Source: Raillietiella orientalis (lineage: Eukaryota). Taken from it: 64,000 bases of DNA. The DNA is taken from the NCBI GenBank assembly GCA_036172245.1, contig JAYWIR010000016.1, forward strand, positions 1,736,001-1,800,000, given 5' to 3'. Below are positions 6,564-52,329 of this stretch, one piece after another; the first letter of the stretch is position 1, and the number at the start of each line of letters is the position of its first letter. Under the pieces are notes generated by a model. The model saw nothing but the letters and a program-made list of their open reading frames with translations, was not told where the DNA came from and searched no databases. A program made the position numbers and the translations under genes.

Positions 6564-7480
6564 TGACACCCGGTCACGCCGGGACGTTTATTTATACAAA
6601 ATAAACATATATGTCCATGGCAGGACGTCTGATCTTGCCACGTTACTTATAGCTACTAGAAGGAACCTGCCGAGAACTGGCACGCAGGACAGCAGGGTTT
6701 GCCTCGGCAGCACAGAGGAAGGGGAAACAAACAAGAATAAAACAAAAAACATATTGTAGAAAAAATGGGGGAGGGGGGAGGGAAGGGATCACCGTGTGCT
6801 AGCGAGTGTGCTCTGCATCCTTGTAAGGATGCCAGAAACTTCCTGTTTCAAGACTCCCAAATGGGGTCATCTTGACGCTATCCTCATGAGGAGGGCAGCA
6901 AATTAAATGGGATCCCTCTCGTTCTGGTCTCTGGCGCTGCTCAATGCAGCCATGGTTCCGCCGCGTGGGCAGCAAAGTGCTGATGGGGATGTGGCAGGCG
7001 TGAGGGCGTCGCGCAGGAAGAGGAGCTTTACAATGTCTCTGGAGTTGCCGCCGAGGGTTCCAAGGGTCTCGGAAAAGCGTCTTAAAAAAATCGTGAGGGC
7101 AACGTAGTCCACTCGAAGGTGCGGGAGGGATTCCCGCCCCTTGTGCCTGGCACAGTTCAGGTCCCGCCTCCCCTCCTTCATGTCCAATGATGCCAGCGGA
7201 CGTTGCACGGGAGGTCCCAGTGCAGCAGCCTCAACGTCAACTCCTGCCACTTTAAGAGGACACGGGTGTTCATGAGCACCGGGGATCACTGCAAGTCTTC
7301 CTCCGGAATACTCAGTAGCACGCCCCAGCGCAAAAGTCCACGAGGTCGAGCACTTGGGGTCGCAGAGTCAGTGAGCTGGTCCGTCTTGCACTCGCCCAGT
7401 CCTTTTCTCCTTCCGGAGATTTCTACAATAACCTCCCATCTGGGCGTAAGGCTGCTGTCCAGATGCTCCCTAGGGGAGGG
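6564..7480 (-). mobile_element. Family B L1/Tx1-like 3' fragment B1, inserted in SINE A1
   Basis: Minus strand encodes the zf-RVT-like C-terminus (CARHKGRESLPHLRVDY). Sense 3' end is AATAAA-CGT-CCCGG-CGTGA-CCGGG-TGTCA. Direct repeat CACTGGT at 6557-6563 and 7481-7487. Confidence 0.8.
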
Positions 7481-8138: not shown

Positions 8139-8666
8139 TTAACCCTTTAGGTGAGGGGCTCACCAGATTTGAAAGACGAATGTGTTGACGGCACGCGAGT
8201 CGTAGTGGCGATCCCTGTGGACGGAGTGTTTTTTCGCGTACCGCGTGCTCCATCGAGGTGCCGACTGACTTTATAAAGTGCTGATTAAAGTTACTACTGT
8301 AATTGTTTATTTACACCACATGCAATAGCATTTTTCCATTTTTTTCCTAACACATATTATTTATTTAAAAATTATAATTCGAATAAATCAACAGCACACT
8401 CACATTTTTAAGATATCACAAAGATAAAAATCAATGTGATAAATTCTATACGACACCGAGAACAACCGACAATAGCCAGCCGATATAAATAGAATTTTGT
8501 TTACTGCCGTTGCTAAGGGAATTATAGGAACGTGAGTGTATGCAACATGCGCAACATGTTGACTGATGTCGCGAGTATAAGGTTTGCCACTCATGGATAC
8601 GTCCATAGCGCACGCTGATAGCTTTCCCCGGGCACATCTTTGCATCCATGGCACTCAAAGGGTTAA
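8139..8666. mobile_element. piggyBac-like non-autonomous element (MITE)
   Basis: TTAA-CCCTTT at 8139-8148 and AAAGGG-TTAA at 8657-8666 (TTAA TSD, CCC/GGG ends); imperfect TIR CCCTTTAGGTG vs CCCTTTGAGTG; AT-rich non-coding interior. Confidence 0.55.
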
Positions 8667-8978: not shown

Positions 8979-11900
8979 TAGGTTGCGGAGCTTCACTGTT
9001 CAGAAAAGAAATGCACCGATGTAGGTACGCGACGGATGATAGGTACCCTCTATGGTTTCACAGCTTCAGCATCCCGAAAAGTTGGACCCGGTCTTCCTTC
9101 ATGCGACCAGAAATGCAATGACAAACGCAATGGATCTCCACTCTCATTGGAATGGATGGCTGGAATTTCCCTCTCTCGACAGTCTTCTCACGTTCTTTCC
9201 CCGGTTTGATGCTGTTCGTCCCCGCTCCCAACCATCCGCAAGTGAGACACGAGAGAGAGAAGCGACCTTTTCCTCGCTCGTGTCCTCCCCCCTTTTTCCA
9301 ACTTCTCAGCTCCCTTGAGCCACCCGAAGAGTCAGGGTTTTGTCACAGGAGCTTTCCGGAAGCCGAAGGACCTCGATGCGCAAGCAGCAGCTGCTCTCTT
9401 CCTTAGGAGCCCAGCCTCTTCCTGCAGCCGCTGCAAAATTCGGGACTTTCGTTTCGAATTCACTTCGAGCAGGGAGGAGGAGGGAAAGCGTCCAGTTTTA
9501 TTCCCTTTTCGGTTTCCTAAGGAACGCTGTTGAGCAGAAACGAGCTTCGCGGAGGTTCCCTGCCCGTTTCTCCTTCCGAAGCACCCGGGAGACTCGCGAC
9601 CCAACAGGGCCCTGCCCTCGAGAGTTCTTTCCAAGACGCACCTGTTCCTCACATCAGGGCCGTGGTGCCTTCTGGCGGCAGGCTGCCTACCTTGAGGGCA
9701 CAGCGGCACTCGCTGATGCGTTGCTCTCGGTTGATTCGAACGGCGGCGGCTCTCAGGACCAAGGGAATCAGGAACCTGGGTTCCGGCTGGAGAAGGGAGG
9801 CGTTACCTCGGAGACGCAAGAAAACGCCCTGAGACCCAGAGAAGACCGCCGTACCTCCCTCTTTCTTACACCGGCATGAAATTGGGGTCTTTTCCAGCTG
9901 TTCAAGCCATGTTGGTTCTCTTCCAAGGAACTCATTGTCTGCTGCACACGCTCCTTCCATGAGATGGATCTGTCGATGATCTTACCCTCTGCATTCCGGG
10001 TTTTAACGTCAGTCACAGCGGCTCTGCAGCTGGCGGTCTGCAGCGTGGGGATGAAAATTCATGGAAAAGATGACTTCTTGCAAAGTTCTGCCCCAAATCC
10101 TTTGCTGCCAATAAATGCCGTGGTGATGAACGAGCTGAGCGGATCAGTTACAGTTCACAGTACCGTCAGAAAGGGCACCACTGTCTCTGCATAGGATTAT
10201 TCCTGCGCACTTCCCATTCTGGATGCGTACAATCGGTCAGGGTCCCATTTGAAAAGAGGTAAGAATGGAGACAGAGCAGCGAGATAGCTTCACCTTTTGT
10301 TCTGCCAACCCCCCACCCACCCCAAACACATGAGTTCCTCCTTTCTGCTACCCAGCTCCTTCCTCAGATGCGTCTCTTTCTTTGCCAAAGAATGAAATCC
10401 AAGAAAGATTCTTGTTCCCTCCCCCCTCACTCTGGATCCGCAGAAAACGAGAGGGTTGAGTTCCATTCACGATTCGGGAAGATCCCGAGCCGTGCCTGGA
10501 AACAGGAAACCCTCCTGCAAGGGAAGGGAAAGGCTCTTTGCAAAAGCCTCCTCTTCCAGATTTCATGGGTGTTTCTTCATCAAGGCAGTTGGACCTTCTG
10601 AACCTGGATGGAGTTTCATCCTGTCCGCACAACCAGCGCCCGTTCTTATCCCCCTCCCCCCATCAAGGAGAACAGATAAGATAACGTACAACCAAATAAA
10701 GTGCTTCAATTAGACGAAACGATGGCTTATCTATTTTATTCTACGAATAAATAAAGATTCTATATAGATCAGTTTTCATCGATGGGAGCCTAAAGCCCTA
10801 CTTGGATGTCATAAATAACGCTGCTGCGTCGATGGCATCATAAATCTTGTTTACTTGGATTTTACGTTCAAGTTTTGAAGTTTTCCTCGCTGGATCTACC
10901 TCTTTTATCCCAAGTTCGCATCTGGAAGCACCCCTTAGTGATTCGAGTTTTTTTCCCCCATCGCTCAGGATGAACAGCGCGCATCTTCCAATATCAAACC
11001 CTCAGATTCGATGCGCGACTCCGGAAGTACGGCGGGGACTCAACAGCCGCACTCCGATCCGAAGGGATGGATGGCTGGGAGACTGCAACTTTGCGGGAGC
11101 ACGACAGCGGAGGAAGGAAGCCTGTCGTGCTAGTCATGGATACGGGAGAGCAGCACCTCCAGTGCCAGACAGCGAGATCCTCCCCGATCCAGTTCGAGGG
11201 ATAAGGATTTTTCTTCCATTTCTCTCTCTCTCCCCCTCCCTCTCTCTCTTTTGGTCTGGCTTTGCTAATGCAGTCGGTTGTTCCTCCTCCTTGGTTCTCA
11301 TGTCACGAAGAGCGCCGACATCACACCAGATATCCCATCTTCCGAAACGATCCTCCTGAAATGATGAAATTACCTGCCTCGAACTGAACTCCACAGCCAC
11401 AGCATCTCCCGTGAAACCAGGAGGCACACCTCCGAGCAAACTTCTCCGATCCGGGCGCATGCGCCGGGGTCCTCTGGAATCTCGTCTCGAAACGCCCGCG
11501 GAGTTCCATCCAGCTACCGCGGCTGCGGCGGTGAGGTGACAAAGGTTTCCTGCAGTTAATAGCATTTCCGAGAAACCATTCGCCTGTGAACACAAAGATC
11601 TCCTCCGGAACACCCGCGCGTACCTGAAGACACACACGGGAGGTATCGGAATGCGAAGTGCTCCTGCGAAAATCCGGCCTGAAGCGTCCGTCTTCGGAAA
11701 GCGTTGCGTCGGTGTCCGCACGCACTCGATGAGGACGGTTGCGCGCCTTCTGCTCGGGGGCAAGCGAGGCGGCTTCTTCGATCTGCGTCTGTCTGTGGAG
11801 GTAGCACCATGGCGACGCATTCTTCGGATCTCCCATTGAACGCTTCGACGCCTTTGTTTCGAAGCCGAAAGAGACACCGGCTGGGAAGCAAACAAACAGC

Positions 11901-16187: not shown

Positions 16188-18066
16188 CGAAAAGCGAGAA
16201 ACCCATTGGCCCCGTTCCTCTTTTCCAGGAAACGGCGGCGTTCCGACAAACACCGCTCTCCTTCCTCTCCGACATCCTGCCAGCACACACCCCTCCCCCC
16301 CACGCGGAGACAAGCGCGGTGCGGAGGCGTTTCCGTAGTCACCGCGATGGCTCTCCCCTTTCTCTCTCTTCCCCCACGAGACCGAGGTCACGCAAGCGAA
16401 CGACGCGATGCCACGGGCCGACTCGCAGCTAGCGCCGTTCCCCGACCGCCGAAACGCGGCAGACGAAGGCCGACGCCATCCATGGCGAGCGACGAGCACC
16501 GCCACCGCCAGCCTCTCCAGAGGGCGGCTGCTCCTCCGATCCGAAACGGGCGCTGCGTCGACGGGAGGCAAGACGGAGGAGAACGCGAGCTCGCAGGGAG
16601 CGCACTCGCCTCACCCCCCTCTGCGTGCATGCGCTCACCGGAATTCCCGGCTTCCGCCCCGTCCCTACGACTGAGCACACCCGAGCAAGGAAGTGGCGAA
16701 CGGGTGCCCAGCATTCAGCCTGCCTTTCTGCCCGGACCGCTTCGTTCCCTCAAGTCCCGGCCAGTTCCTTACAGCCAGGAAACGAAGCGACGGAAACGAA
16801 CCGAGCGAGCGCTCCAGTCGAGGCCGAAGGCAAGGGATTCGCTGGAAGCACCGACCTGGCGGGCGAGCCAAAGCAAGGCAAGGACGCGCCACTCGTCCCT
16901 TGCATTCGTCCACTCGTCGGTCAGGACACCGGAGACATGCCCACGGCAACAGACGACGACGACGAGCCAACCGATCCATCCCGAGTCCGGAAGGCGCTCG
17001 CCGCGGAAGCCGGCAACGAACGAGCGCCACCGACTTGCCCGCGTCCTGGAATTCCACCTGCGGTTCCGATCGCCACCGGAGCTCGCGCCCCCTTCCCCGG
17101 GAACGAGGGACGTCTTCCTGGAGACTCTACGAAGCGGAAGACCACCATGCTCAGTTCCAAGCGTCCGAGCGTGATCAACGAAGCGCGGCTTCGCTCGAAG
17201 AGGACGAGAAGCCACGAAGGCGAACACGGCGGCCTCTTGTCTCCGCAGTTCCCGCGGGACAAGAGGCGCTTCCTGTTTCCTCCCGCGCACGAGGAGGCGA
17301 TCGCTTCCTCATCCGGGCCGTCGACCGGCCGAGAGGACCGCTTCCCGCTCCCCATTCCACGACGTCAGGACTCCCCCGGCTGCCGCCCAAGAGCCGCGCT
17401 GGCTCCCTTCCTTAATGGAAACGAGCATCTCTCTCGGAAATGCGTCTTCCCGGCATGCGCGCCGCAAGCAGCGGTCCGTCGTCAGCAGGCAGCTGACGAG
17501 GACCGCAGCCTCGCCCGGGGTTCGGCACGAGCAGCTACGAAGGGGCGCTCGCACCCTTCCCCTCATCGCTGCTCGCACCCTCGTCAGCACGCTCGCGCGC
17601 AACGAAAAGGCCGGCGCGGGGCCGTTGCCGTGGATCCCGGCCCACCAGGCCGAACGGGCGCCGCGACGTCCGCTCGACCTGCTTCCGTCCAGCTGGGTGA
17701 GCTCCTCCGGCGCGGCATCCAGCTGACCGCACGCGCGACCGGCGCCCGCCTTCCCGCACCGCTCCCTCATCACCGGGTGCCGCGAGACTCGCTGCCCCGA
17801 ACGGGATGACGCATCGGGCAGGCATCAGCCACCCGCCGCGGGGGAGCGGAAGGCGAGGAAGGCCGGCTGCCCCTCCCCCATGCAGCATTGCTCTTCTCCA
17901 CCGGTTCGCGCTCGGCGTGCTCCGCGACGCTCGCTGAGAAAATCCCCGATTGCTCCGAAGATAATGAGGTAATCTCGTTTGATGACCGAGGTACCATTGT
18001 CTCCAAGACAAAAAGGAAAATGACGAGGAAGGAGACAAAAAAACAAAGGGTTTGCCCATGTGGTAA
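16188..18066. repeat. GC/CpG-rich interspersed repeat, copy 2 (~1.88 kb)
   Basis: 16622-18064 matches 1-1442; GC-rich composition extends left to ~16190; candidate 6-bp TSD TGAGTT at 16182-16187 and 18067-18072. Confidence 0.8.
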
Positions 18067-18809
18067 TGAGTTTTGGGATCAGGAAAGGTGATAGTGCTAA
18101 TGGGGACGCCTGTGCGGGAAATTTTTAGCTGGCATCCTCATGGTTGCTGATAGCAGATTGACTTTCGTTTTCAGTCTTGGTATTCTGCGCTAAAGTGGAG
18201 AAAGAGAACGGGCAGTGGAAGAATAAATAATTAGTGGATGAGGAGTGATACACTTTCGACCGTTATTGAAATAGAAAGTGTCCTGGAGATGGAGAATTGA
18301 TTGTGTGTCCTGCTGCGCGTAGATAGGATACAGCTGCTGATTAAATTAGAAGAATTCAGTGGGACAGCAGGACGAAAGCCATCGGACCGAACTCTAAATG
18401 GGACACTCATCAATGCCGGAACAAATGCATGTCTTTGAGTTTTAGTTCCGGACAAATCTCATTAAAGCCTTTTGGCTTTAGTAAGGAGGAAGATCAAGCC
18501 CAGTGAGTGCTCGTCATCGTGGTTCGAATCTGCGATTAGAAGGCTCCTTGGCTAATACCTCCTTGCCTCTAGGGGTTCCCCTGTTTTTTGGTTAGCTTAG
18601 AAGCAAGATGTTAGGATATGTTAGGATGTTAGGATGGATAGGATCGCAATCTTGAACTAAGTGGTTCGAGTGCCCTTTTGGGGGAGTGGAAGGCGTGGGC
18701 GGTTTTGCAGAGGCCCAGACGTGCTTAGAGTCCCAGATTGACTACAGCAAGTAACGTGACTCCCTCAGTTTTCGTGAAGATGATTATCCCCGAAAGTCAA
18801 GTACAAATC

Positions 18810-19048
18810 AATTTTCACAACTAGAGGGGACTTGATCCCTCGAAGGACCCCGGAGGGTCAGCTTCCAACTCCAGCCAGCCAACAGGAGCATCTGGTTTCC
18901 GGCTATTTCCACCAGTGCTGCACGAGAGGCCTTCAGGCCAACCAACGTCATCCTGCGGAGGAGGGGACCCTCGAAACCCACGACGCTTACGCATTTCTCG
19001 GCACAGCTTCTTCCCCGAGAGGATTTCGAACCCACGCGCGGAGACCTC
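18810..19048 (-). mobile_element. Family A SINE copy A2 (5' part)
   Basis: Reverse complement shows GGGTTCGAAATCC, GCCGAGAAATG, GTCGTGGGTTTCGAG and GCCGGAAACCAGATGC. Confidence 0.7.
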
Positions 19049-22995: not shown

Positions 22996-24247
22996 TTTAT
23001 CACCTGGTCACTCCAAGATGTTTATTATAAAAAATAAACATACATGTGTAGGGCCGTCAGACCTACATTCTCCGAAAATGTTCGGAACCTGTTGAATAAC
23101 CGGCACGCAGGCCGGCGAGGTTCGCCTGGCAGCGGAGGAGGAGGGGCAAACAAAAATAAAAATAAAACAAAAATATATACAGAAAAAATTGGGAGTGTTA
23201 GGGTAAGGACCTCCGGGTGCTGGAGGACGTCCTCTGCATCCTTTCCAGGATGACGGCAAATTCCAGTATGCCCCAGGTGGGACCCATCTTCCTGCCGTCC
23301 TCACGAAGAGCAGGGAGAAACAGATGGCGTCCCTATTGCGCCGTCTTCCTCTCGCGTGGTTCCAGACCTCTGCCAGAATCCCGCGTAGGCAGCAAAGAGC
23401 TGCTAGGGATGTGCTAGGCGAAAGGGCATCGCGCACGAAGAGGTGCTTCATCACGTCCCTGGAATTGTCCGTTGGTGCACCAAGGGCCCTTGCGTAACGC
23501 AACCACAGGGGCCGGAGGGCAACACAGTGTACAAGCAGATGCGGAAGGATTTTCGTTCCCCACACCTGCAATAGTTGGGGTCCACAGCCCGCTGGGTCCG
23601 GTGAGACCGACGGGCGTTTCAGGGGATACCCTAGTGCAACAGCAAAAGTGCCGACTCCTGCCAATTCAGGGGGAGGATCCGGTTGTTCTTCAGCGCTGGG
23701 GGCCACTCGAGGTCTTCCTGTAGGATTTCCAGCAACTCACCCCAGCTCAGCTGTCCCTTTGGTGGGGTATTTGGGGTCGCTGCGTCCGTAAGCTGGCCCG
23801 TGGTTCAACCACCTAATTCCTTCGTCCGAAGACCGATCTCACAACTGACCTCCCATTTGGCCTGCTGGTTAGTGCCCTGGTGCTCTCTGAGAGAGGGCAG
23901 TGCCGCTGCTAGGGATGTTCTTTGCGTCCACGCACACGTGGTGGGCTGCACGATGACGTCCTCCAGCGAGCGGTTGCTGTAGGAGTGCAGCAGTCTCCGC
24001 CGCATCTCCGGGCTCGCTTGGTTTTTCTTGGCGACCGGCTTCCTGCAACCAGGCACTACCTTTGCGGGCAGGCAGAAGATCCAGGTGTTCGTCCTGGTCA
24101 GCTTGGCCACTCTCTGAAGCTCCAGTTCGCAGTCGGACACGTGGCGTGGGCGCTGCCGCGCCAGGAACGAAACAGTCCCGTGTAGCCAGTGGTTCGCTTG
24201 ACCAGGTATCTTGCGGGCTCGCACCAGTTCGTCCTCCAATTTCGTGC
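22996..24247 (-). mobile_element. Family B L1/Tx1-like 3' fragment B3
   Basis: PHLLVHCVALRPLW zinc-finger region; nearly identical to B5; imperfect TSD TAAGAGTCTGG (22985-22995) / TAAGAGCTTGG (24248-24258). Confidence 0.85.
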
Positions 24248-25099
24248 TAAGAGCTTGGGGTGCAACCATCCGCGAAAGAAGCTGAGGATAGGATGGAACA
24301 AGATGGTAGCGAGAAAACGCACAGAATGATGGGCCGGACAGAAGGAGATAGGAGGATTGACCAGAGTGACGAAAGAGATCTTACTCAACGAGGCTGAGGA
24401 AAGCAACTTTCTTCTTTCCAGTCACCAATACCCCAACGCTGGTTGGGGTGGGTGGTGTTTGCTTCATTCTTTCTTATGCGCATTTTTTACATGCATCATT
24501 GTGAGCTGTGGAGCGTCGCATTCATTTTTAGTTCCATCCCGGAAAACAATGAATGCATCCATAAGAAAGGTGTGACTCTTCTATTTCAAACGGCTTATAA
24601 GGTGGATACAGTGTGATGCAGAGAAGACTTACTCTTTTCAGGACATCCAGAAAGCGTTCCCGATCCAGAAAAATCCCTCCAGAGTGCTGTCTCACCAGAA
24701 ATCTTCATCACACATCCTATGCAAGTAAGTTTTGTAAGCAAAGATGATGACTCCTTTGAGTGGCGATTATGATTCGTGGTTGCAACTCTGAAGTAGTCGC
24801 TGCAGGATTCATGCACGATGAGTGACTGCGAAGGGCAGCTCATGTACTTCCGGGTGCTTGCCCTCAGCATTCGGGAGTTTGTTTTATACGTTTAGGTTTG
24901 CTGAAGGTGATCCTAGGTGTTCCTCCACGCCGAAGTGCTCGGGAAGCTGTTGTTGTCTGTTCCAGCCCTCTAGGCAACCTCAAGTCCACCAAGATCAGAA
25001 GTGCATCGACCAAACATTGGAGTAAGCTGCTGTCCCGGCCGTGTCCAGAGTCCACCCCATGAGAACGCAATCAGCTCATCAATGCAGCCACACATCCTG

Positions 25100-26949: not shown

Positions 26950-27504
26950 AGTGTGTGGGACCAAAAGGGTGTGCTTCTGGTGGACTTTATGGAGCCTGGA
27001 GGAACCACCACTTCGCAAGACTGCAGTGTAGAAACACTCTCGAAAGTGCGGCGTGCCATTCAGGACCGACGACATGGAATGCTGAGATCAGGAATCGTTC
27101 TTCTCCTTCACGACAACGCGCGCCTCGGCGACGCATGCTGTCCCCACATTCCAGACAATCCAGGAATTCAGATGGGAACTTTCTGATCACTCAGTCCTGA
27201 CCCGGCGCCTCGCCTCCTCCCACGTCTTCCTTCCAGCACCTCAAGAAGTGGCTCCACGATTCGAGGGGGGAAGTGGGGAGTGGAAAACTGCAGTGCCACC
27301 GGACTGGCTGGCCACTCCCAGACGGCGGATTTTGATGCAGACGGTTCCCAAAAAGCTATCGAGAGTGCTTGGGGAAGAAAATGGTGACTACGTGGAAAAG
27401 GGACACATGGATGGATGTGTTTCGAACCACTAATGCATCTTTGTTTCTCTTATTTGTCCTTTCTTTCTATCTGGTCGGTTCTTACTTTCGAAATACGCCT
27501 CGTA
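26950..27504 (+). mobile_element. mariner (Tc1/mariner) transposase remnant with right TIR
   Basis: WDQKGVLLVDFM...LRRAIQ-like...LLHDNAR, SPDPAP (cf. YSPDLAP) and NGDYVEK; terminus CTTACTTTCGAAATACGCCTCG-TA at 27481-27504. Confidence 0.85.
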
Positions 27505-27779
27505 TCCTTGCAAATTAACAAATCGAGTCTCTTAGTTGTGCGTCAGAAGCATTTATCCTAAGCAGGTTTGGAGCCGTTGCCGGAGGACATCAAATGACAC
27601 ACCTCATTACTACGTAGATTTCCATGGAGACAGTTTCCTATTGTTCTGACGAATTATCCTGAATTCCGTCGCTGTTGTGAATATTGCCGATTTCTTTTTC
27701 CTTAAAGGAAATTTAATTAATTGCACGTGGTTTGATTTAATTCCCGTAATAAATCTCAGGTTCCGAGTTGCACAGCGTA

Positions 27780-28980
27780 ATCAAAGCACGACTGCCCGTC
27801 CAGACGTGAAAAGCTGAGAACTGCGACCTCGGAAGAGTTGCAGCACGTCACTTGCGAAATCATCAAATCTCCTGTTTATGGGGAAAAAAAATGTTCCCCG
27901 GTAATGGCGGTTTACTCGAATGCTCTCGTTCGGGAGGAGCGGGAGATTTTGCGATGGCGTAAGAAGTCTTCGGAAGAGAAAAGGAAGAACTTCCTCGTGA
28001 CAGTTATGGATGCTAAGCTTCGCGGGATCGCGAACGGTTTGATTCCCGATCGCCTGAACAAAAATCAGCCGCCAGTGGTCCCTCCCACTCCGAAAGAGGA
28101 GCTGGTACCTTCTGGGAGCATTAGAGTTCCACGAAACAGGACGATTACGACCCAGGGGGTCCTCTTGGGCATCGCTTGACAATGATCGTGTTTCAGCGTG
28201 GCGCGAGGGTCGCAACAGCTGGAGTACTTGAGGTCCTTCTTCGTGAGAGCCTTTGCAGCTCGCAGACCACCGCAAACCGTTTGTTCCTGGAAGCACAAAG
28301 GACAGGAGCAAATTGGTGTCAGAGACACAGACACTGGGTCCTGGGACCTCGTTCCCATCATCCGATCGGATTTTTTCGCTTCCGTGGGTTCCATTTTGAT
28401 TTTACTCATTCTGTCTTCTCCACCACGGAGGAACCCGAATTCTTCACTGAAGACTCATCTTCGTTGTTGAATTGCAAGGAACAGGTCGCCTCTTGGCTGT
28501 CTCTTGCAGCAAGGTGGGTGGAAGCTGTGTTGAAGGTGACGTGAAGATACAGCGACCCTCCAGAAGGGAAGCGGAGACCCACGACAGAAATCATCATCAT
28601 TAAATCTCGCGGAACTTATCAATGACGAGGGTTAGTTGCACTTGAGAGAGAAAAGAGCAAGCGACTCGAGAATGAGCATACGTCAGGGCTTGCAGCAGCT
28701 GTCAAAGTACCCTGATTTTCAAGATTGGTATTATTCAATTATCCTGGTAGCCAGGAGACTCCTCCCCCATTCTAACTCTACAGGCAGTTGCCTTCCAACG
28801 CGTTTCTCATCCTCCTTCTCAATGAGACCCAGCAATCTGAACAGCAGCTTGCGACCTCTCGAATCTGCCGACTGCGTGAGAAAGTGGATCTTCGAAGCAT
28901 CCGAAGGCACCCAACCTGCATCAAGCAAAATGCGGGTCATGCTTACGTGGCAACAGGATAGGGGAAGCTGGAGGATTGCC
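27780..28980 (-). mobile_element. Possible decayed BEL/Pao LTR retrotransposon pol remnant
   Basis: RILLDAG...FLT resembles the Pao protease RILLDSGSQRSFIT; otherwise degenerate. Confidence 0.25.
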
Positions 28981-28984
28981 CGCG

Positions 28985-29190
28985 CTGGTGGCGGCCTCGT
29001 CGCGCAGCACCAGGCATCGCGGGTTCGAATCCCCCAGGCGGGGATCAACTCCGGGAAATGGGTGCGCGTCGTGGGTTTCGAGTCCTCCCCCTCCCCCGCA
29101 AGATGACTCTGGTTGGAAACCGGATGCCCCCCGTTAACTGGACGAATTAGATAGTCGACCATCCGGGGTCCTTTCGGAGCATCAAGGAGC
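28985..29190 (+). mobile_element. Family A SINE copy A4, 5' part
   Basis: GGTTCGAATCC at 29022-29032, GTCGTGGGTTTCGAG, GGAAACCGGATGC; homology resumes at 30029. Confidence 0.75.
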
Positions 29191-30028
29191 GCCTTGTACA
29201 ATCTAAAGTTTGGAGATTTTTATGACAGAGAACAACCATAATAACTCATTTACTAAATGTTTCACAAACAGACTCCTGGCGATACAGGAGGAGGTTTTTC
29301 CAGTAAGTATTCATCCCAAAACACCAAAGAACGTGCACTAGGAGAAAGGGAAAATTTCTCAGTTAGCAAGCAAAAAAACTGAATCCAAAGAAGCTTTTTC
29401 TGAAAGTGGAAGCATAAACAGTAAAAGCAGAACTGTCAATGAGAGATCCTTTGCTGATGCAACGAAGAAGCAGATCAGATCTCATATATTTAGTTCGTGG
29501 TAAAGATCGTGGAAGAATAGCATGGCATTATGTATTAGTTGATAAAGATAAAAGAGAGATGTTTCTTGAAAAAAGTAGGACTGTCTCTATGGATGTTGCA
29601 GATTATGGGGAAATTCTAGTACCAGATTAATTTTACTTTTTCTAGTTGCTCTATAGCTTCCTGAAAACTGTTGTGAGATTCAGTTACACCTAAAATATCC
29701 TTTTTCTTCTATTCATCTGCATTTAAACTTTGACTCTCAGCTATAAGTACACCTTCGTTTTCCCCTAACGTTAGTACTGAAGGTTTTTCACCAGCAAATC
29801 TGCTTGGTTTAATAAAAGAAATAAGGGACCTTAACGAGGAAAAAAACTTAACAAGAATAACATTGGCGAGTTATGTGAAGAGTATAAGAAGACTCATAAT
29901 ATTGGCAAGAGTTCGGATGATAAGCATGGTGACAGGCAAAAAGTAGGTAATAAGCACCGATCTTCTGGAGATGAAAGTTTCGGTGCAGGATCACAGCAAT
30001 CGCAAAGGAGTACAAGTACAAGCCTTTT
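29191..30028. other. AT-rich bacterial endosymbiont (Wolbachia-like) DNA integrated in the nuclear genome
   Basis: Abrupt drop in GC; GGAG Shine-Dalgarno-like site at 29212-29215 before ATG 29222; peptide matches a Wolbachia protein motif from memory; flanked by the two halves of a host SINE. Confidence 0.7.
29222..29618 (+). pseudogene. Frameshifted, 3'-truncated Wolbachia-type hypothetical protein
   Basis: RSFADA/RRSRSDLIYLVRGKDRGRIAWHYVLVDKDKREMFLEKSRTVSMDVADYGEIL; the continuation I recall from Wolbachia homologues (YSGWGEDPP) is missing. Confidence 0.7.
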
Positions 30029-30570
30029 GGAGCTCCCCTACGGTTGCAAAAATAGAGCCACTGATACCCCCTCGTAGAGATGCCTTTCCAGAGTCCCAGG
30101 AGTGGGCTGTTCCCTTTGGAGAGCGTCTTTCGGAGAAATTTGGAAGCGTTCCTTCGGGCTCCCTTCAGAGGAATAAATCAAGAGAGGTTTTCTTGTGGGT
30201 TCCCGAGAAGGAATGAGGAGTGGACCTTCCCAAAAGATTCCTCCGAAGACAATAAGAGGATCTCTTTGGGGTTTCCTTTGAAGGCAACCAAGGCGAGCGT
30301 TTCCTTCAGGGTTCCCTTCCAAGAGTAAGAGGAACGGGCTCCTTCCTCCGGAGGCTTCCTGGGTTCATAGGATGGTCCCCTCCCGGAGTTCCCCCTATGA
30401 CTTGAAGAGTTAACACGCACCCTCGGGTGACATGGGCAACGTCAAAGACCTTCGCGAGTTCCTCCCCTACGGAGGCGAACTGTTCTTCGGCACTTGGCGA
30501 ACTAAACAAAAGAGAAAAGCCGGAAGGAAGGCAGTGAAAGCAGAGGAACTCACAAGGATTCCCATCATCC
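30029..30570 (+). mobile_element. Family A SINE copy A4, 3' part
   Basis: Hairpin array plus GCACCCTCGGGTG and GCACTTGGCGAAC, as in A1. Confidence 0.8.
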
Positions 30571-30576
30571 TAGGCC

Positions 30577-32300
30577 TGATCTTCTGCTGCTTATCCCCGT
30601 GACCACCCCAGCTCCAGCACTCGAGGATTTCTTCGAGTTGCCAAGTCGGGGCTCAGGTCTTGAGGCGAATAGTGCGAAGCGTCCTTGGAGCCGGTCGGAG
30701 CGGCGTGGGCTGGACGGTGGGACTGGATCCGCTTGGGGAACCCCACAGACGGGTACTTCAAGAACCTTCCGTTTGGAGACTTATGCGTAACAGAAGCCTG
30801 GTCCCGCCATCTCCAAAGGGTAGACATGTAGCTCGGCCCGTTCCAAAACGACAGGTTTTGCTTGCCGGAACGGGCCGTGGAGAGGCACTCGTTTGCGACT
30901 CCCCTCCTCCGCCCCCTGCTTTTTATTTGCTCTGTCCCTCCTGACATCAAGCGAAGAACCGGGGACTTCCTGAGAAAAACCCTGTGGACCACAGGGAGCT
31001 CCAGACTTCATCTCGAAGACTTGAGCGCTCAGCGTAGGGATCGTGGACTGGGCCTCCGTACGCCGCAGAGGATAAAGCGTCAGTTCCAATTCAGAAGACT
31101 AGCCTTCGCGGCGAGATTATGGACCATGCCCTGGTGCGCACCAGCACGGCTCCTCGCGAAGAACACAACCGGCTGCAAGGGACTCACGTTCCTCCCCGCC
31201 GGGGATACCAACTTCGCCAGCTGGTTGCTCTGGTGGAGGAGAACACCTGGATCTTCTGCCTCCCCGCGAGCTGCACTTCCCGGCTTCTGGAGTCGATCTT
31301 CGCTCGGAGGAAGATCCACGGTGCGAGCGAGGCGGGGCACGCCTGCCTGCGACGAGGCATCAACGCTCGCAAGTCGCTGGAAGAGATCGTCCTCAACCCG
31401 CTCAAGATGCGGTGGACCTCGTCTGCTCCACTTGCCCCAGTGCTGCTCACCTTAGGGGACGCAAGGGGCAGCGTAATCCCGGCAAGGTGGGAAGTGACTT
31501 GCTGCATAGCAGCAAAGAAGAAATTATTGGGGTCGTGAACAACTCGATGCTGCGACCCCGAGTGTTCCACCCCAAGGACTTCTACGCTGGGGGGAGCTGC
31601 TCGACATTCCCCCGGAAAAGGTGAAGGAGGGCCCCAGAGTTCTGGAACAGTGGCACCTTCTTCCTCAAGTGGCAGGAGTTGGTGTTTCTGGTGTTGCATG
31701 GGGGAATCCCATGCAAAGCACATCTTCATCATTGGACACGGAGAGCGAGGGTGCTCTGTGGGACAGTTGCGGGAAGGAGGAAATCAACTCGCACCTGCTG
31801 ACTGTGTTGCCCTCCGTTCCCTTTGATATCGCCTCGCGACCATCCTAGGAATCGCGATGGGCGGCCCCAGGGACATTTTCAGATGCCTCTTGGCGCTCGG
31901 TGCCGTTCTGCCGCCAGCCACGTCCTTCTCTGTTCTCCGGTGTCTTCGTGGGATGGCGGTGGCCTGGGATGCCAGAAGACAAGGTCGAAATGGGAGGGAC
32001 GCCATCCACTGGGGGCGGATCTTCCTGGGGACCGCTTCGAGAAGGCCCCACCTGTGCGAGACACGGGCGGAACTCTCTGGCATCGTGAGCAGGATGTTGG
32101 CAAGTTCCCTCCCCTATTTTGTGTGTATATGTGTTTTTCTTGCTTTTGTTTTTCCTTCCCCCACGCTGCTGATGCGGACCGCACCAGTCTGCGTGCCGTT
32201 CTTCGGCAGATGCATTGCACGTGGTAGAACCCAGGGCTCCACCACACCAATGTATTTCTATTGCTTTACGTAAGAAGTGCTCCGGCATAGCCGGGTGATG
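30577..32300 (+). mobile_element. Family B L1/Tx1-like 3' fragment B4 (1.7 kb)
   Basis: Post-RT motifs GYFKNL, FLRKTLWTTGSSRLHLEDL..RGLGL and zf CGKEE..HLL; TSD ATCATCCTAGGCC (30564-30576) / ATCATCCTATGCC (32301-32313); ends CCGGC-ATA-GCCGG-GTGATG. Confidence 0.85.
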
Positions 32301-35332: not shown

Positions 35333-36010
35333 GATTTATCACCGGTAACGCCAGGGCGTTGATTATAAAACTAATAAACATACATGTATTGGGCCGTCAG
35401 ACCTACATTCTCCGAAAATGTTCGGAACCTGTTGAATAACCGGCACGCAGACCGGCGAGGTTCGCCTTGGCAGCGGAGGAGGAGGGGCAAACAAAAATAA
35501 AAATAAAACAAAAATATATACAGAAAAAATTGGGAGTGTTAGGGTAAGGACCTCCGGGTGCTGGAGGACGTCCTCTGCATCCTTTCCAATGTGACGGCAA
35601 ATTCCAGTATGATCCAGGTGGGACCCATCTTCCTGCCGTCCTCACGAAGAGCAGGGAGAAACAGATGGCGTCCCTATTGCGCCGTCTTCCTCTCGCGTGG
35701 TTCCAGACCTCTGCCAGAATCCCGCTCAGGCAGCAAAGATCTGCTAGAGATGTGGCAGGAGAAACGGCATCGCGCATGAAGAGGTGCTTCATCACGTCCC
35801 TGGAATTGTCCGTTGGTGCTCCAAGGGCCGTTGCGCAACGCAACCACAAGGGCCGAAGGGCGACACAGTGTACAAGCAGGTGCGGGAGGGATTCGAGTTC
35901 CCCGCACCTGCAATAGTTGGGTTCCACAGCCCCCCGTGTCCGTTGAAGCCGGCAGGCATTGCATGGGGTACCCCAGTGCAGCAGCAGGAAACTTGCACGG
36001 AATACCACAG
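35333..36010 (-). mobile_element. Family B L1/Tx1-like 3' fragment B5
   Basis: CRCGELESLPHLLVHCVALRPLW; near-identical to B3; TSD TACATCCCGTT (35322-35332) / TACATTCCGTT (36011-36021). Confidence 0.85.
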
Positions 36011-45543: not shown

Positions 45544-47106
45544 GAAATCACGGCGCCCGCCTTGCGTGAAGGAGCCGCCGCAGAACGTCCGCAACAGGGG
45601 GGTCCTGAGGTCGACGGAGCGCCGAAGGCCGTCGCCGCCACACGTCCTCCAGGGCCCTGCAGTCCAACGGGAGGTGCTGGAACGGTTCGGGGAGGCAGCT
45701 CTCCCGGAACCGGGTGCCTGCTCTGAAAGCCCTGCATCAAAAGCCCCAGTGCGGAGACAGCACAACATTCCGTTTCCAGCGGGGCAGGAACGCAAGGGTA
45801 TCCGCACGCAGGGAAGGGACGGCGAATCCTTTGAAGCCGCACCGAGCAAGTCGCTCCACCGAAGGGGTCCCTTCGTCCGGGAACGACGAGTAAAGCCCTC
45901 CGTCAACGCGCTCGTCTTGCAGTCGTCGGGGAGCCTCTCGACGCCCGCAATGTTGCAGGAGAACTCCCACCCCGCCGGCTGTCTGCCTGCCGTCGTTGTT
46001 TGTCCTGAAGGGTAGACAGCTCTGCGGCAAGGGATATGACGTCAATCAAGAACCACGTCGTCCAGTCCTGTAGGATATCTCCTTGCCAAGTAGTCGCTCC
46101 TTGCGGAGAGCGTTCTCATCCGCATCAGTACAATGAGAACGCTGACGTTAGTGGAAAGGGGAAGTTTTCAGGGAACGAGGCACCGAGAAGTGCTGTTTCC
46201 TTCCTGAGTGCTGTTTCCGTCCGGTCCAGTTTGTTTTTGATGATTCGGTGAATCGACCAAGGGAGGCTTCCCAGATGGAATCAAGCTGATGGCACGTTAA
46301 AACCTTCACTGGCGGGAGGAAAGGGGGCGAAGGCGCTTCGCCCATTGCAAATGATCCGGGAAACCAATCCCATTTCGGAAGTTTGGGACGGGCGCGGAGG
46401 TGAAGACCGCTCCCACAGGAAAGATGTGGCTTCCCCCTTCAACGGGAACGTCCGGCGGCTCAGCATCGGTCTTAAAGGCTACTGGTTTAGGGTTCCACGA
46501 AGTAGAACAGAATGGACGCAACTTGGGCGCTTGGGAAAAGGAGCGCTTCGCACCCTGCTCCAGCTCCGCCATCTAACCAGTTTCCAGAAATCCCGAAGCC
46601 TGCAGCTCTGACCTCTTCCACGACGTCGCGCGTCACATCCAAGCTCCTTGGACGTTTCGGAGTTTCAGATGCTCTCCTCCTTCCGTGGAGAAGATCGAAT
46701 AACATGTTTCCGTTATGTCGGCCGAAAATCATGTGCTGTCGGTCACGGGCTACAAGAAACTTAATGCTTGTTGAGATGCGCTGTACGTCTCATGGTTCCT
46801 AACCTCGGAGGAACAGCGAGTTTGAGTAGAGGATCAAGCGAGCCAGCCAGACTTTCCCCTTCCAAATCGCATTATGCGGTCTGTAATGGCGTTAAGAAAA
46901 GGCTTAAGGGTATTTCGTGAATGTCCGTCTCGCCGAGGTTCCCATTCCTCCGCAGACCAAAGAAAACAGCAGGAATGCAGTCCGTGCAGTACCCAAATGT
47001 TTGAATTTTCTTACTCCTACGTACTTTTTAATTCTCGTGGAAAAGAGAGAAAAAAAAAAATTCAACACGCTATCTAAAGGAATGAAGTGAAGAAAAACAT
47101 TGGGCA

Positions 47107-48771
47107 ATGTTGGCGAAATCGTGTGTTTCTTCCGGCGCGACTCCGATGGAAGCGGTGGAGACGACGATGGCGGTGGCGGAGGCGGCGCCCCCGGAGACGG
47201 CGGTCGCCGGAGCGACAAGAGGGCCCGTAGGCCCCACCGTTGCTAGTGACGCGACGCCATCTTGCGCGGTGGCTGCGACCGTGGAGCGGCCACCGGCAGC
47301 GGCGGCAGCTTTTTCCTATGCGGAGGTGGCGGCTGGGACGGCGACCACCCAGCCGCAGAGGAAATTCGGGAAGCCAGAGTCCGGGCCGATACGAGACATC
47401 GACGAGCCCATAATTAAACTAGAACCGAACGTGAAGACGGTCGCGTTCAAGACTGGACTTATAAAAATGAACAACATCAAAGAGGTATACCTGGCTCTCT
47501 ACAAACAACAGGTGGACTTTGACCGCCAGCAGGCGATCGTCCCGAACACCTCGGGATTCACAGTGTACACCGACTGTGAAGAAATAAGGGAATCCCTAAT
47601 TGAAAAAGGGATCAACATCCAGGGCAGGATAGTGTGTGGCGTCGGCGAAATGCCGTACACCACCCTATTCCTGAGCGGACTCGGGCCGTTCGTCACCCAA
47701 AGGGCTGTGTGGAGGAAACTGTCGCAGTACGGCGAGGTACTGGACAGCAACTTCCACAATATATCGGGAAAGATCTTTTCAGGGGAAGCGACGGTGAAGA
47801 TGAAGTTGAAGGAGGAAGCCCAGGTTCCTGGGATGATCTACTTCGACGGAGACGACATGGGAGTCTCCGTTCGACATAGGGCGCAGCCAGTTTTCTGCAA
47901 CGGCTGCAAAACCTTTGAACACCGGCAGCGAGTCTGCCCGAGGGCCAAGTGCTTCCGCTGTGGGAAGCAGGGCCACCAGGTGCGGGACTGCAGCATGCCG
48001 GAGGTGTGTTCGTTCTGCAAGTCTCCGGGGCATGCAAAGTGGTGCTGCCCGGAGTTTGCAAACTACAGAACGATGCAAGGTCAATCCCCAGTCAGGACAC
48101 GGGTGTTGGAGGAGGTAATCAAACCTCAAAGGGCGATGAAGCAGAGGAAGGCGAAGGAGGCAGCCCCAGTTTCGGCGGACGGCTTCACCACGGTGGGGAA
48201 GGGCGGCAAGAGGAGGATGCTCGTGAAGGAGCAAGAATCCTCTGCTGCGCAGGTCGAGGAGCAGGTTGGCGAGCAGGTTGGCGAGCAGGTTGGCGAGCAG
48301 GTTGGCGAGCAGGTTGGCGAGCAAGTTGGCGAGAAGGCCGAAGTAGAGCAGGTTGGCGAGAAGCAGGGTGTGCCGGAAGGCGAGGTGATGGAAATCACCG
48401 AAACCGTTCCGACATCGCAGGAGGCGGTGCAGCTCACCGAGGAGGTGGTGAAGCTTGCGGAAGAAGTGCAGGGGGAGAAAAGTGAGGTGCAGCAGGAGCA
48501 ACTCCTGACTCGCATCAATGAAACCCAACAGGGAATCAACACCCTGGTGATCCAAGAAGAGCGTGAAAAGCTAGAGAACCAGCTTTTCGAAGTGAAAGCG
48601 GCGTACTGCGCGAAGGTCTCCCTCGAGACACTTCCGCGCAAGGCGATCGCCAGGGCAGAACGCACAATGGAGACGGACCGGGAGTCCACAGACCACACCG
48701 GCACGGAGAGCGATGCCGGGAATGAGAAGTCAGCTTCCTCGACGGTGAGATGCGAAAGGTCTCCCCGTTAG
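47107..48771 (+). CDS. LINE ORF1p, gag-like nucleic-acid-binding protein (554 aa)
   Basis: SYAEVAA motif, RRM-like region (TLFLSGLGPFV..LSQYGEV), three CX2CX4HX4C knuckles (CNGCKTFEHRQRVC, CFRCGKQGHQVRDC, CSFCKSPGHAKWCC), acidic coiled-coil-like tail. Confidence 0.9.
   Translation: MLAKSCVSSGATPMEAVETTMAVAEAAPPETAVAGATRGPVGPTVASDATPSCAVAATVERPPAAAAAFSYAEVAAGTATTQPQRKFGKPESGPIRDIDEPIIKLEPNVKTVAFKTGLIKMNNIKEVYLALYKQQVDFDRQQAIVPNTSGFTVYTDCEEIRESLIEKGINIQGRIVCGVGEMPYTTLFLSGLGPFVTQRAVWRKLSQYGEVLDSNFHNISGKIFSGEATVKMKLKEEAQVPGMIYFDGDDMGVSVRHRAQPVFCNGCKTFEHRQRVCPRAKCFRCGKQGHQVRDCSMPEVCSFCKSPGHAKWCCPEFANYRTMQGQSPVRTRVLEEVIKPQRAMKQRKAKEAAPVSADGFTTVGKGGKRRMLVKEQESSAAQVEEQVGEQVGEQVGEQVGEQVGEQVGEKAEVEQVGEKQGVPEGEVMEITETVPTSQEAVQLTEEVVKLAEEVQGEKSEVQQEQLLTRINETQQGINTLVIQEEREKLENQLFEVKAAYCAKVSLETLPRKAIARAERTMETDRESTDHTGTESDAGNEKSASSTVRCERSPR
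48259..48330 (+). repeat. 12-bp coding minisatellite GAGCAGGTTGGC x6 (EQVG repeats)
   Basis: Directly visible; last unit GAGCAAGTTGGC. Confidence 0.95.
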
Positions 48772-48813
48772 AAGAAGCTGAGGAAAGCGAAGCATTAGAC
48801 TTCGAACCCTTTC

Positions 48814-51800
48814 ATGTCCTCGTCGCTAGCGAACGCCAGGAGGCTAAACATCGCCTCCTGGAACATCAATGGATTGACAGACCAAGGCAAAAGGAAGACA
48901 ATCTTGCGGACCATCGCAAGACAAGACGTAGTGTGCCTACAGGAAACCCACCATCTCGGACAACAAAACGCCCAGGAGATGGAACGCCGGTTCAACGGGC
49001 AACTGTTTGTCAGCAAGGGACAAAGGAAGACCATGGGTGTGGCGATCCTCATCAAGAACGAGCTCGTCCACACCCTTCTGGAAACCTTCTGTCCACTCGC
49101 TGGAAGGATAATCGGCGTGCGACTGTCCTGGTCCGACAACGTTCACCTGTTTCTGGTGAACGTGTACGGACCGCACAAGAACAAGCATCGGTGCGCGGAG
49201 GCTCTCCACGAGGCACTCCGCCAACGTGTAGCACCGAAGGACATGGTCATCGTTGCGGGTGACCTGAATATTCAAGACCACATCAAGTACCGTCAAGACA
49301 TCAGAGGAAGAGAGGCGTATCGACGGTTGTCCGACGACTTCGGACTCGTGTGGCGAACAGCCAGCCACAAACCGATCGATCACGTCCTTCATAGCGTGGA
49401 GATCGACAACCGAATCCAAGGTTTTTGCGACATTCCTCACCTGCTGTCCGATCACCCTTTGGTTCGGTTCTCCCTCCGCATGGAAAATCCGCGACGGCGA
49501 AAGGCCACTAGGGCGGCGCTCATCTGCATGCCCGCCTGGTTTGAGATGCTTCCCTGTCACCAGGAGGTGATCGAGGCGATTCTGCGGGACACCACCATCC
49601 GCAGAGTCGCCGACTGGGACAGGTTGAAGCATCGGATCCACCTGTTCTGCAACATGCAGTACTTTTGCAAGCGAGTGAGGCAAGAAGCGTACCAGGAGCT
49701 CAACATCCAAGACCGCTCCCTCTCCAAGTACTACGATCAGTACGAGAGTCGGTACGTCTTCAATAATGTGAAAGGGGAGGTCGGCGTGCTGGAAAAGAAG
49801 AATCTGGCGACAGACATCTTCTGCATCCAGTACGGTGGCCAGAAACGGCATACGTCGGAAGACATCGTAAGAGCATTCCATCAGCACTACGAAGAACACT
49901 TCCGACGGCAACACACGTGCAAGTCTATGCAGAGAACTTTCCTGAGCTACCTCGAGAAGAGGACAAGCGATCTCCAGAGAGACAAACTGGAGGAGGATTT
50001 CTCCGAAGATGAGGTGAAAACGGCTTTTGGGCAACTGAGGAAGGACGTGGCAGCGGGCCCTAATAGTGTACCCATCACGCACTATCAGCGGTACCTGCAC
50101 GCCTACCTGCTCTTGTTCCATCAGCTCACCCTCTGCATCCGTGAAGAAGGAAGACTACCCGAGTCCTTCTACGAGAGTCGGATGAGATTGTTGCCGAAAG
50201 GAGGCGACCTCACGCAGGTCGCCCAATGGAGGCCAATCTCCGTCCTAAACTCCGATGCCAAATGGTTGGCGAAGATCTGGTCCAACCGCTTAGGCAAGGT
50301 CATGCCGAAGCTCATCTCTCCGGTCCAAACATGTGCGGTGCCCGGACGCCACATGTTGGACAATGTCAAGTGTGCCCAGGCCACCGTGGGACTCAGCCGG
50401 TACGTCGGCGAGGATCTGGTGCTGGTGTTCACTGACATGAAGAAGGCTTTCGACTCCATCGACCATGGGATGCTGCTGAAGATTCTGGACAAGCTGGGCC
50501 TTCCGGAATACTTCAGCACCTTCGTGAGATTGGTACTCGAGAACCAGTACTGCCGAATCAAGATCAACGGCGAAGACACGACAGCAATTAGGATGGAACG
50601 AGGAGTCCGCCAGGGCGACTCGCTAAGTCCTTTGCTGTTCGTTATTTACATGGAGGCGCTATCCTCGTACATCGAGAAGAGTGGACGCCTCCAAGGCATC
50701 CAGATCGACGACCAGCGGCTCACCCACCTGGCGTACGCTGATGACCTTCTCTTCTTCATCAAAGGAGAACGAAATCAGCGTGCGTTCCTGGAAGTGGTGA
50801 CGCTCATGGAAGAAGGACTAGGATTAAAGATCAATGCAAGGAAAAGCCAACTTTTGCCCGTCTGAATCCTGGACCTCTCCTTCCTCACGGGGAGAGGATT
50901 CCGAACGGTGGACACAGCCAAATACCTGGGAGTCTACATTGGCAACGGCCCTGCGTCGAAGCTTTTGTGGGATGAAACCCTGGGGAAAACGGCGAAAGAG
51001 GCAGCGAAGTACACCCGACAGGACCTTGGAATGAAACGCAAGGCCAACCTCTGGAATGGAGTCCTCCTTCCTAAGGTGCTCTTCGGGGCGGCCTTTGCGA
51101 GAGTGAAAAGGAACACCTCGAGGGAGCTGGAAAAACTGCAAAGGAAGACATTATGGGGCAAATATCGCCCAAGAGTTCGTTTGAAACCCCTATGTCGTCC
51201 CAAAGAAGGTGGAACCGGGATGAAGTCGCTTGCACACTCCATGGCAATCATGGACACGCGACACATCCTGGATATCGCCGAACAATGGGACGACTGGCCG
51301 TACGCGGCGCATAGGGCCTACTCGATGTTGCTTAACAACTCGAAAGATCTCATGACTGCGCTGCTAGGCCGAGTAGGGGAGTGGATGACCATCGACCCGA
51401 CCTGGAGGAGGAAACAACTGCTGGTACGAAAGTACAAGATCAAGATCGTGCCAAGAAGCAGGGAACTCTGGCAACAGGAGTCCATCCTCGTGATCCCTTG
51501 GATGCTTCCGGTCCCGGACGATACCCGAGGATGGATCTACCGGCGGCACAGAGTTACCTTGCAACGAATCCAGGAATGGAGAAAAGGAGGCCACCTACAT
51601 CATGTTCGTATACTTCGGTATATCGAGAAGATGCTAGGTAGGTTCACCCACCGGACCCGCGAAGTGTGGATAAACCACGATGACTTTGCGTGGTCCAGGG
51701 TAACGAAAACAAACCTCCGAAGAATGATAAAGGATCAAGATGAAGACACCAGTACCCTCCAGGAAGCGGCCAATCGCTACGGAAGCAACAGGATCAACCT

Positions 51801-52329
51801 GTTGGTGATCGGCACGACCCTATGGAGGAGTGACCTTCCGCCGGACAGCCAGGACAACCTCCTGATGTTTTATCAAGGAGGAATCCTGAGCGGGTCCAGA
51901 CTAAAGTACTTCACAAGAAGAAGAGGAGACGAAGACTGCCCAGCATGTGGAGACACGGATACCAGACTTCACATCCTGACGTGTCCCACATTGCTCCACG
52001 ACTGACTGATCCTTAAACGGATCATTGGACGCACCACCAGTTCCACGATGGAGATCCTAGCCGGGATGTTTCAGGGAGATGGTAATGTTCCCTGTTACAA
52101 TCCCATGGTGAGGACGACCATTGCCCTCTTCATCACTGCCATTCTGGTGCGGTGGTGGAAGATGAGGAAAGCCAGGAGAGCCGCACCTCCGATGGAGATC
52201 CTGCAAGGACTCCTGAAGAAGGAAATCGGCATAAGAATTTGTGGAAGACGAGCAGCCTGGACGTACAGACTCATCCTTAAGAGGATTGAAGACGACGCCC
52301 GGGACCAAACGCCCGCATACCCACCCTAA
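48814..52329 (+). pseudogene. LINE ORF2p (APE endonuclease + RT + C-terminal CCHC), ~1171 codons with two in-frame TGA
   Basis: WNINGL, LQETH, NVYGP, GDLN, SDH; WRPIS, DMKKAFDS, GVRQGDSLSPLLF, YADDL, KYLG; CPACGDTDTRLHILTCP. Track ORFs 48814, 50908 and 52048 share one frame; stops at 50863-50865 and 52003-52005. Confidence 0.92.

Follow-up and report, generated by a model that had tools for sequence, protein, structure and literature searches.

A three-piece Wolbachia-derived insert, probably a nuclear transfer, within a SINE-like repeat of Raillietiella orientalis

Transfer of Wolbachia DNA to hosts is described as widespread, and nuclear copies of mitochondrial DNA (numts) are described as integrating by end joining at double-strand breaks (PMC3798261). 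The nuclear Wolbachia transfers (nuwts) reported for Brugia malayi (PMC3849323) and for 22 filarial genomes (PMC12693587) are short non-functional fragments located in repeat-rich non-coding DNA. According to the filarial survey, the donor supergroup of such fragments can be assigned by phylogeny, and supergroup F is a frequent source (PMC12693587). The Wolbachia "genomic fossils" of Dictyocaulus viviparus are nuclear fragments that record a past infection and amount to nearly 1 Mb in total (PMC4046930); they are reported as attributable to supergroup F (PMC12693587). For numts, work of Hazkani-Covo and co-workers, as cited in PMC3798261, describes filler DNA at breaks and little or no homology at the joints.

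The insert characterized in this study is probably an ordinary example of this known transfer of DNA from a symbiont to an animal chromosome. Like the nuwts listed above, it is short, apparently non-functional and, in the assembly, surrounded by repeat-rich non-coding DNA, and its donor can be placed by phylogeny. Like the D. viviparus fossils it appears to record an infection, and like numt filler DNA it shows no homology at its internal joints. In contrast to the nuwts of arthropods and nematodes, it is a base-resolved mosaic of three pieces, set in a SINE-like repeat and bounded by a direct repeat of 5 bases. It is a single insert of 0.83 kb, far less than the D. viviparus total, and its ~95% identity to a sequenced strain makes it comparatively young. 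Unlike numts, it derives from a bacterial rather than a mitochondrial donor, and the starts of its pieces show a sequence pattern.

The DNA analysed, referred to below as the window, is a stretch of 64 kb. The GC-content of 200-base segments between positions 29200 and 29999 was 0.33–0.38, compared with 0.50–0.65 on either side. Three Wolbachia pieces accounted for 828 of the 838 bases of this AT-rich insert. We consider it probable that the insert is a real nuwt, consisting of dead DNA captured by end joining after the SINE-like repeat had landed. A search of the whole 64 kb against four Wolbachia-type genomes (E ≤ 0.001) revealed Wolbachia-like DNA at 29194–30024 only, and the sequence was free of such matches for 29 kb to the left and 34 kb to the right. 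The DNA of the insert had no match among phage and plasmid records. The features of the locus are as follows:

about 28975–29190, plus strand: left half of the SINE-like repeat, defined by alignment with other copies (start approximate)
29186–29190: GGAGC, left copy of the 5-base direct repeat, a possible target-site duplication
29191–30028: AT-rich insert of 838 bases, with colinear halves of a multi-copy SINE-like repeat on both sides
29191–29196: GCCTTG, six letters not assigned to host or donor
29197–29618, plus strand: piece A, 422 bases, the leader and codons 1–134 of a conserved Anaplasmataceae gene of 155 codons
29619–29773, minus strand: piece B, 155 bases, the first 51 codons and 2 upstream bases of a hypothetical Wolbachia gene of 105 codons
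29774–30024, plus strand (sense): piece C, 251 bases, an internal part of an AAA+ ATPase gene of 500 codons
30025–30028: TTTT, four letters outside the host and donor matches
30029–30033: GGAGC, right copy of the direct repeat
30029–about 30520, plus strand: right half of the SINE-like repeat, with an A-rich tail at its end (end approximate; repeat families D4, D5, D7, D8 and D11)

Both flanks of the insert aligned in order with other copies of the repeat, so that the two halves are colinear. The window contains at least six other copies, three in plus orientation (near 7350, 25080 and 33560) and three in minus orientation (near 18900, 56400 and 61600). In blastn comparisons with these copies, identity was 72–77% for 29061–29190 and 70–78% for the right half. 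A preliminary description, made from the sequence alone, had reported an AT-rich block of ~840 bp that splits a repeat into colinear halves with GGAGC at both ends, and both the GC profile and the alignment confirmed this arrangement.

The same description identified the repeat as a host SINE. Of the features of a tRNA-derived SINE, the repeat shows dispersed copies (seven in 64 kb), a B-box-like motif and an A-rich tail, which in the copy near 7350 took the form of a terminal run of 14 A (family D11). The B-box-like motif at 29022–29032 matched exactly the B-box consensus of Pol III promoters, and it was near-exact in four other copies; the window as a whole contained 18 B-box-like matches versus 6.2 expected. 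The tRNA head, however, was not recognised: ARAGORN found no tRNA in the window, and Rfam found none at E ≤ 1 in 27000–32000, where its one match was to a snoRNA at chance level (E 0.35). With no recognizable tRNA, "SINE-like repeat" is the safer name. A nearly intact non-LTR retrotransposon was located at 47086–52005 (plus strand), and its presence indicates a eukaryotic nuclear setting. Its ORF1 (561 aa) contains a zinc knuckle, and its ORF2 contains endonuclease and reverse-transcriptase domains (688 aa), followed by 379 aa more after a single in-frame stop at 50863–50865.

Removal of the insert together with one GGAGC yields ATCAAGGAGCTCCCCTACGG, which aligns with the shorter copies of the repeat, namely those near 25080 and 18900. 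An empty-site allele should read ATCAAGGAGCTCCCC. GGAGC is likely to be a target duplication, but the SINE copies are only 70–78% alike and some of them carry extra letters at this site, so that the comparison falls short of proof. The right copy of GGAGC also forms part of an 8-base palindrome at 30029–30036 (GGAGCTCC).

Piece A begins with a leader of 25 bases, in which GGAG is located at 29212–29215, 6 bases before the ATG at 29222. This Shine-Dalgarno-like element had been pointed out in the preliminary description, and it was kept in all 17 Wolbachia loci listed. The region 29194–29618 was identical at 410 of 430 positions (~95%) to locus L006 of a metagenome-assembled genome (MAG) titled Rickettsiales bacterium (genome G001). 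Piece A was 92–93% identical to five further loci, including those from the Wolbachia of Penenirmus auritus, Tettigetta isshikii and Mansonella ozzardi. Against all Wolbachia sequences in the comparison, it shows deletions of 1, 2 and 2 bases after 29270, 29346 and 29463, respectively. These three frameshifting deletions split the gene over three frames, which start at 29222, 29257 and 29439, and the last 21 codons of the gene are absent. The frameshifted ORF noted earlier is thus real as far as the frameshifts are concerned; the gene, however, fills 29197–29618 only, and the remainder of the insert consists of two unrelated Wolbachia pieces.

The third frame contains a 63-aa ORF (29439–29630), the peptide which the preliminary description matched to Wolbachia proteins. 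A phmmer search against 1.84 billion proteins substantiated this match, with 211 matches at E ≤ 0.001, 26 of which reached E ≤ 1e-10. The best match (E 1.5e-22, 87% identity) was a hypothetical protein from the Wolbachia of Ctenocephalides. The best clusters, where named, comprised hypothetical proteins from the Wolbachia of Ctenocephalides, Menacanthus eurysternus and Pentidionis agamae, as well as from Anaplasma bovis. Screening of one genome for each prokaryote species yielded 104 pattern matches, of which 61 were confirmed as loci of this family, in records titled Wolbachia, Ehrlichia, Anaplasma, Neoehrlichia and related bacteria. The core of the family, LVRGKD...AWHYVL...DV..YG, is present in the window ORF, and the SGWG..PP strand and the last C-terminal helix are missing from it.

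The family has no Pfam or NCBIfam model and no sequence match in the PDB at E ≤ 1. Foldseek returned nothing at E ≤ 0.001 (best VIA-align Z 3.4), and the best Atlas score, 0.78, pointed to an unnamed bacterial cluster. In an AlphaFold model built from an alignment of 51 sequences, pLDDT exceeded 90 from about residue 76–85 to residue 155, and the modelled domain would have the order helix-strand-strand-helix-strand-helix. The family core of ~55 residues was also observed inside long proteins with ankyrin, TPR, ZZ and kinase domains (P0004, P0005, P0021 and P0048); one long core-bearing protein, XP_023933241.1, belongs to the brachiopod Lingula anatina. Protein P0011 (119 aa, encoded on a Logan contig of 1,242 bases) represents a truncated form of the gene that contains an unusual insertion and ends in a foreign C-terminus. 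Its N-terminal part resembles the window copy, and it is possibly another nuclear insert in some host.

Pieces B and C were placed by a search of five whole genomes; the neighbourhood of the piece A gene had given no match. Piece B was identical at 145 of 155 positions (94%) to L067:266–420 (contig 100 of G001), within the ORF L067:101–418(−). The product of this gene had no Pfam or NCBIfam family above the cut-off. Piece C was identical at 243 of 252 positions (96%) to L062:1582–1331 (contig 47 of G001, other strand) and carries a 1-base deletion near 29839. The corresponding ORF, L062:942–2444(−), encodes the AAA+ ATPase (PF00004, E 3.9e-37), and piece C is located after its AAA domain. Piece C was matched in G001 and not in G002, G003 or G005. 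Among the nine genomes searched, G001 provided its sole match, which indicates that piece C comes from a variable gene.

All three pieces were therefore 94–96% identical to one and the same Rickettsiales MAG. A maximum-likelihood tree of piece A was built from 29 rows, namely the window and 28 Wolbachia loci. The window fell into a clade of 10 rows (support 99/97) together with the strains from M. ozzardi, a louse and a cicada and several MAGs. L006 was the row nearest to the window, with end branches of 0.034 for the window and 0.009 for L006. Mansonella is reported to carry supergroup F Wolbachia, and this supergroup is also reported from arthropods, e.g., bed bugs and termites (PMC12693587). 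Since the clade includes the M. ozzardi strain, the sequence comparison identifies the donor as a Wolbachia of the supergroup F type, close to G001. Two of the checks suggested in the preliminary description can be read from these results: the best DNA matches were to the Rickettsiales MAG (94–96%), with named Wolbachia at 92–93%, and the supergroup indicated by the piece A tree was F.

The transfer appears to be fairly recent, given that the insert keeps the base composition of Wolbachia. It differs by ~5% from living Wolbachia, while the SINE halves differ by 22–30% from other copies. Together with the colinearity of the halves, this difference implies that the insertion postdates the arrival of the SINE.

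Pieces A and B are far apart in the Wolbachia genomes in which their positions were compared. According to record coordinates, they are separated by 656 kb in G010, 472 kb in G006 and 206 kb in G007, all single-contig genomes. We also compared the stretch with four public runs that contain related Wolbachia (X1, X2, X3 and X9). Each Wolbachia contig from these runs covered one piece and diverged from the window at 29197, 29618/29619, 29773/29774 or 30024; none joined two pieces or reached the host flanks. Metagenome contigs contained 0 exact matches to 22-base patterns spanning the A|B and B|C joints. Among public runs, none contained half or more of the words of the stretch (best share 0.14).

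Compared with the MAG and with the runs covering each place, the window carries four deletions, the three in piece A (1, 2 and 2 bases) and the one in piece C (1 base). All four fall in repeats or short runs of purines, a context in which assemblies of noisy reads are also prone to error, and the frameshifts alone are thus weaker proof of decay. Twelve substitutions in piece A differed from all six close references. Eleven of these lie in codons, at positions 1, 2 and 3 in the ratio 3/3/5, as unconstrained drift gives. The insert is not part of a living Wolbachia genome, as its colinearity is broken and it is truncated and carries deletions.

A non-homologous end-joining model fits the insert, by analogy with the integrations described for numts. 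The SINE-like repeat would first have inserted at this locus. Much later, DNA of a Wolbachia from the M. ozzardi clade (supergroup F) may have been released and fragmented in a germ-line cell. Pieces of 422, 155 and 251 bases, hundreds of kilobases apart in the donor, would then have been joined without microhomology and would have sealed a chromosome break in the SINE by non-homologous end joining. The 5-base GGAGC duplication could be explained by a staggered break whose ends were filled in prior to ligation. Since its integration, the insert would have drifted neutrally. We infer the release of DNA, the end-joining route, the single event and the germ-line setting; the compared sequences themselves show where the pieces come from and that they are not contiguous in Wolbachia, and also the blunt joints, the frameshifts, the truncation and the colinear SINE halves.

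Neither the A|B nor the B|C joint contains letters common to both partners. The joints therefore resemble blunt end joining, and microhomology-mediated joining was ruled out. In the assembly, the insert has host DNA on both sides: beyond the colinear SINE halves follow 29 kb to the left and 34 kb to the right of GC-rich sequence that includes retrotransposons. The preliminary description argued for lateral transfer later than the SINE rather than contamination. This argument gains support from the position inside a host repeat, the four deletions, the truncation and the scrambling of the pieces, all features that point to integration after the SINE and speak against contamination, with the host junctions seen in the assembly.

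Two further candidate origins were rejected. The ends of the insert are inverted-complementary at 8 of 9 positions (29191–29199 versus 30016–30024) and are flanked by the 5-base repeat, as would suit a DNA transposon carrying Wolbachia DNA. However, Wolbachia itself supplies the entire right arm and three letters of the left one, so that these are not transposon ends. Splicing was dismissed by reasoning, as the kept pieces begin with GT, whereas exon joining would have them end before it.

The patchwork could also have been built in more than one step, either as a larger insert later trimmed by deletions and inversions or as a mosaic copied from another locus. This would suit the letters GCC at 29191–29193, which are the three letters that follow piece C in the donors, as if the pieces had already been joined earlier. 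However, the joints are clean, with neither host nor leftover Wolbachia DNA between the pieces, and the flanks hold no other Wolbachia DNA within 29 kb to the left or 34 kb to the right. In addition, the gap of 206–656 kb between A and B in Wolbachia means that the original insert must have been very large if deletion was the only process. We therefore consider a multi-step history unlikely and retain capture by end joining as the preferred reading.

Simple random shattering of the donor DNA does not predict the shared starts of the pieces. In the window, GTAC begins all three of them (29196, 29619 and 29774), and pieces A and B both end in TA. The donor sites of B and C read natively AAG|GTAC. 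For piece A, all 17 donor loci and all 4 runs read C|TAC, so that the G at 29196 of the window replaces a C; the preceding TT (29194–29195) agrees with the donor. The motif TCCTCATC-N18-AAGGTAC, derived from the two donor sites themselves and searched with at most 1 mismatch, occurred at two sites in the 1.0-Mb G001, which are the breakpoints of B (L067:237–269) and C (L062:1579–1611). In other genomes it was found once in G003 (the B site) and in none of G002, G006 and G010. Chance estimates, which are post hoc and were drawn from 246 kb of Wolbachia loci, were 6.6e-4 for three starts with any one common 3-mer, 1.9e-4 for two sites with a common 7-mer across the break, and 4e-5 for the two donor sites being identical at 26 of 39 positions (GTAC and the 35 bases upstream of it).

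The left end of the insert can be read in two ways. The six unassigned letters together with TAC (29191–29199) are the reverse complement of the last nine letters of the Wolbachia-derived sequence at 8 of 9 positions; alternatively, GCC (29191–29193) continues piece C as it does in the donors. The left letters thus either mirror the right end or extend piece C in the manner of an opened A-B-C circle. Group II introns at the B and C breakpoints were considered and dropped, as none of the 3' flanks inspected, 12 from the 16 listed RF00029 matches of G001, G003 and G010, began with GTAC; one of these flanks (L075) was only 2 bases long. That the pieces arose in a sequence-directed step (through a specific nuclease, primed copying or a circular intermediate) instead of by random breakage is a tentative idea that we regard as improbable. 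Were it to apply across the inserts of the host genome, the entry of symbiont DNA into chromosomes would be sequence-directed rather than an uptake of random debris. The non-random piece starts, if general among the other inserts of this genome, would be the only new element of the locus.

The GTAC starts also bear on an artefactual origin, in which a chimeric contig or library product would have joined reads of a living Wolbachia to host sequence. The restriction enzymes RsaI and Csp6I recognise GTAC, and a start with this tetranucleotide in all three pieces recalls a restriction site; that the assembly is the sole source of the host junctions would likewise be compatible with a chimera. However, in the donors GTAC is present on one side only of each joint, and three further GTAC sites within the insert (29747, 30010 and 30016) remain uncut. 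These observations are not those of a digest-and-ligate product, and a restriction-digest artefact was rejected. An artefact in general would also have to explain pieces of 155–422 bases in a 64-kb host contig, each ~5% away from the nearest Wolbachia compared and with four deletions among them, as well as flanks which continue one and the same SINE copy. We judge it very improbable, and a real nuclear transfer remains the favoured explanation. Expression and use of the 63-aa ORF (29439–29630) by the host as a domesticated fragment is hardly credible: it keeps 14 of 15 invariant alignment columns, a match given by construction, as the window is itself a row of that alignment, but the conserved strand and helix at its C-terminus are missing, TVS stands in place of TGS, so that a nearly invariant glycine is lost, the substitutions are even over codon positions, and no RNA run contained more than 0.05 of the words of the stretch.

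As a nuclear transfer, the insert is a dated and base-resolved trace of an infection, past or current, of the host by supergroup-F-type Wolbachia. It has a practical use as a marker, as such inserts can fool PCR for Wolbachia genes in the host. It adds one data point on the capture of symbiont DNA at chromosome breaks and alone changes nothing that is known.

Several other features of the window were observed. Further AT-rich blocks are located at 8210–8574, 10622–10910 and 27373–27822, with lowest GC values of 0.22–0.34, and had no match in the four Wolbachia genomes. A direct duplication with a spacing of 16.6 kb links 1–300 to 16622–16921 (100% identity) and 1280–1446 to 17902–18068 (98%); either a segmental duplication or a duplicate created in the assembly would explain it. 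A repeat of ~0.6 kb is present in two copies (23026–23644 and 35366–35986), which are 80–96% alike and overlie long minus-strand ORFs resembling the 3' parts of LINEs.
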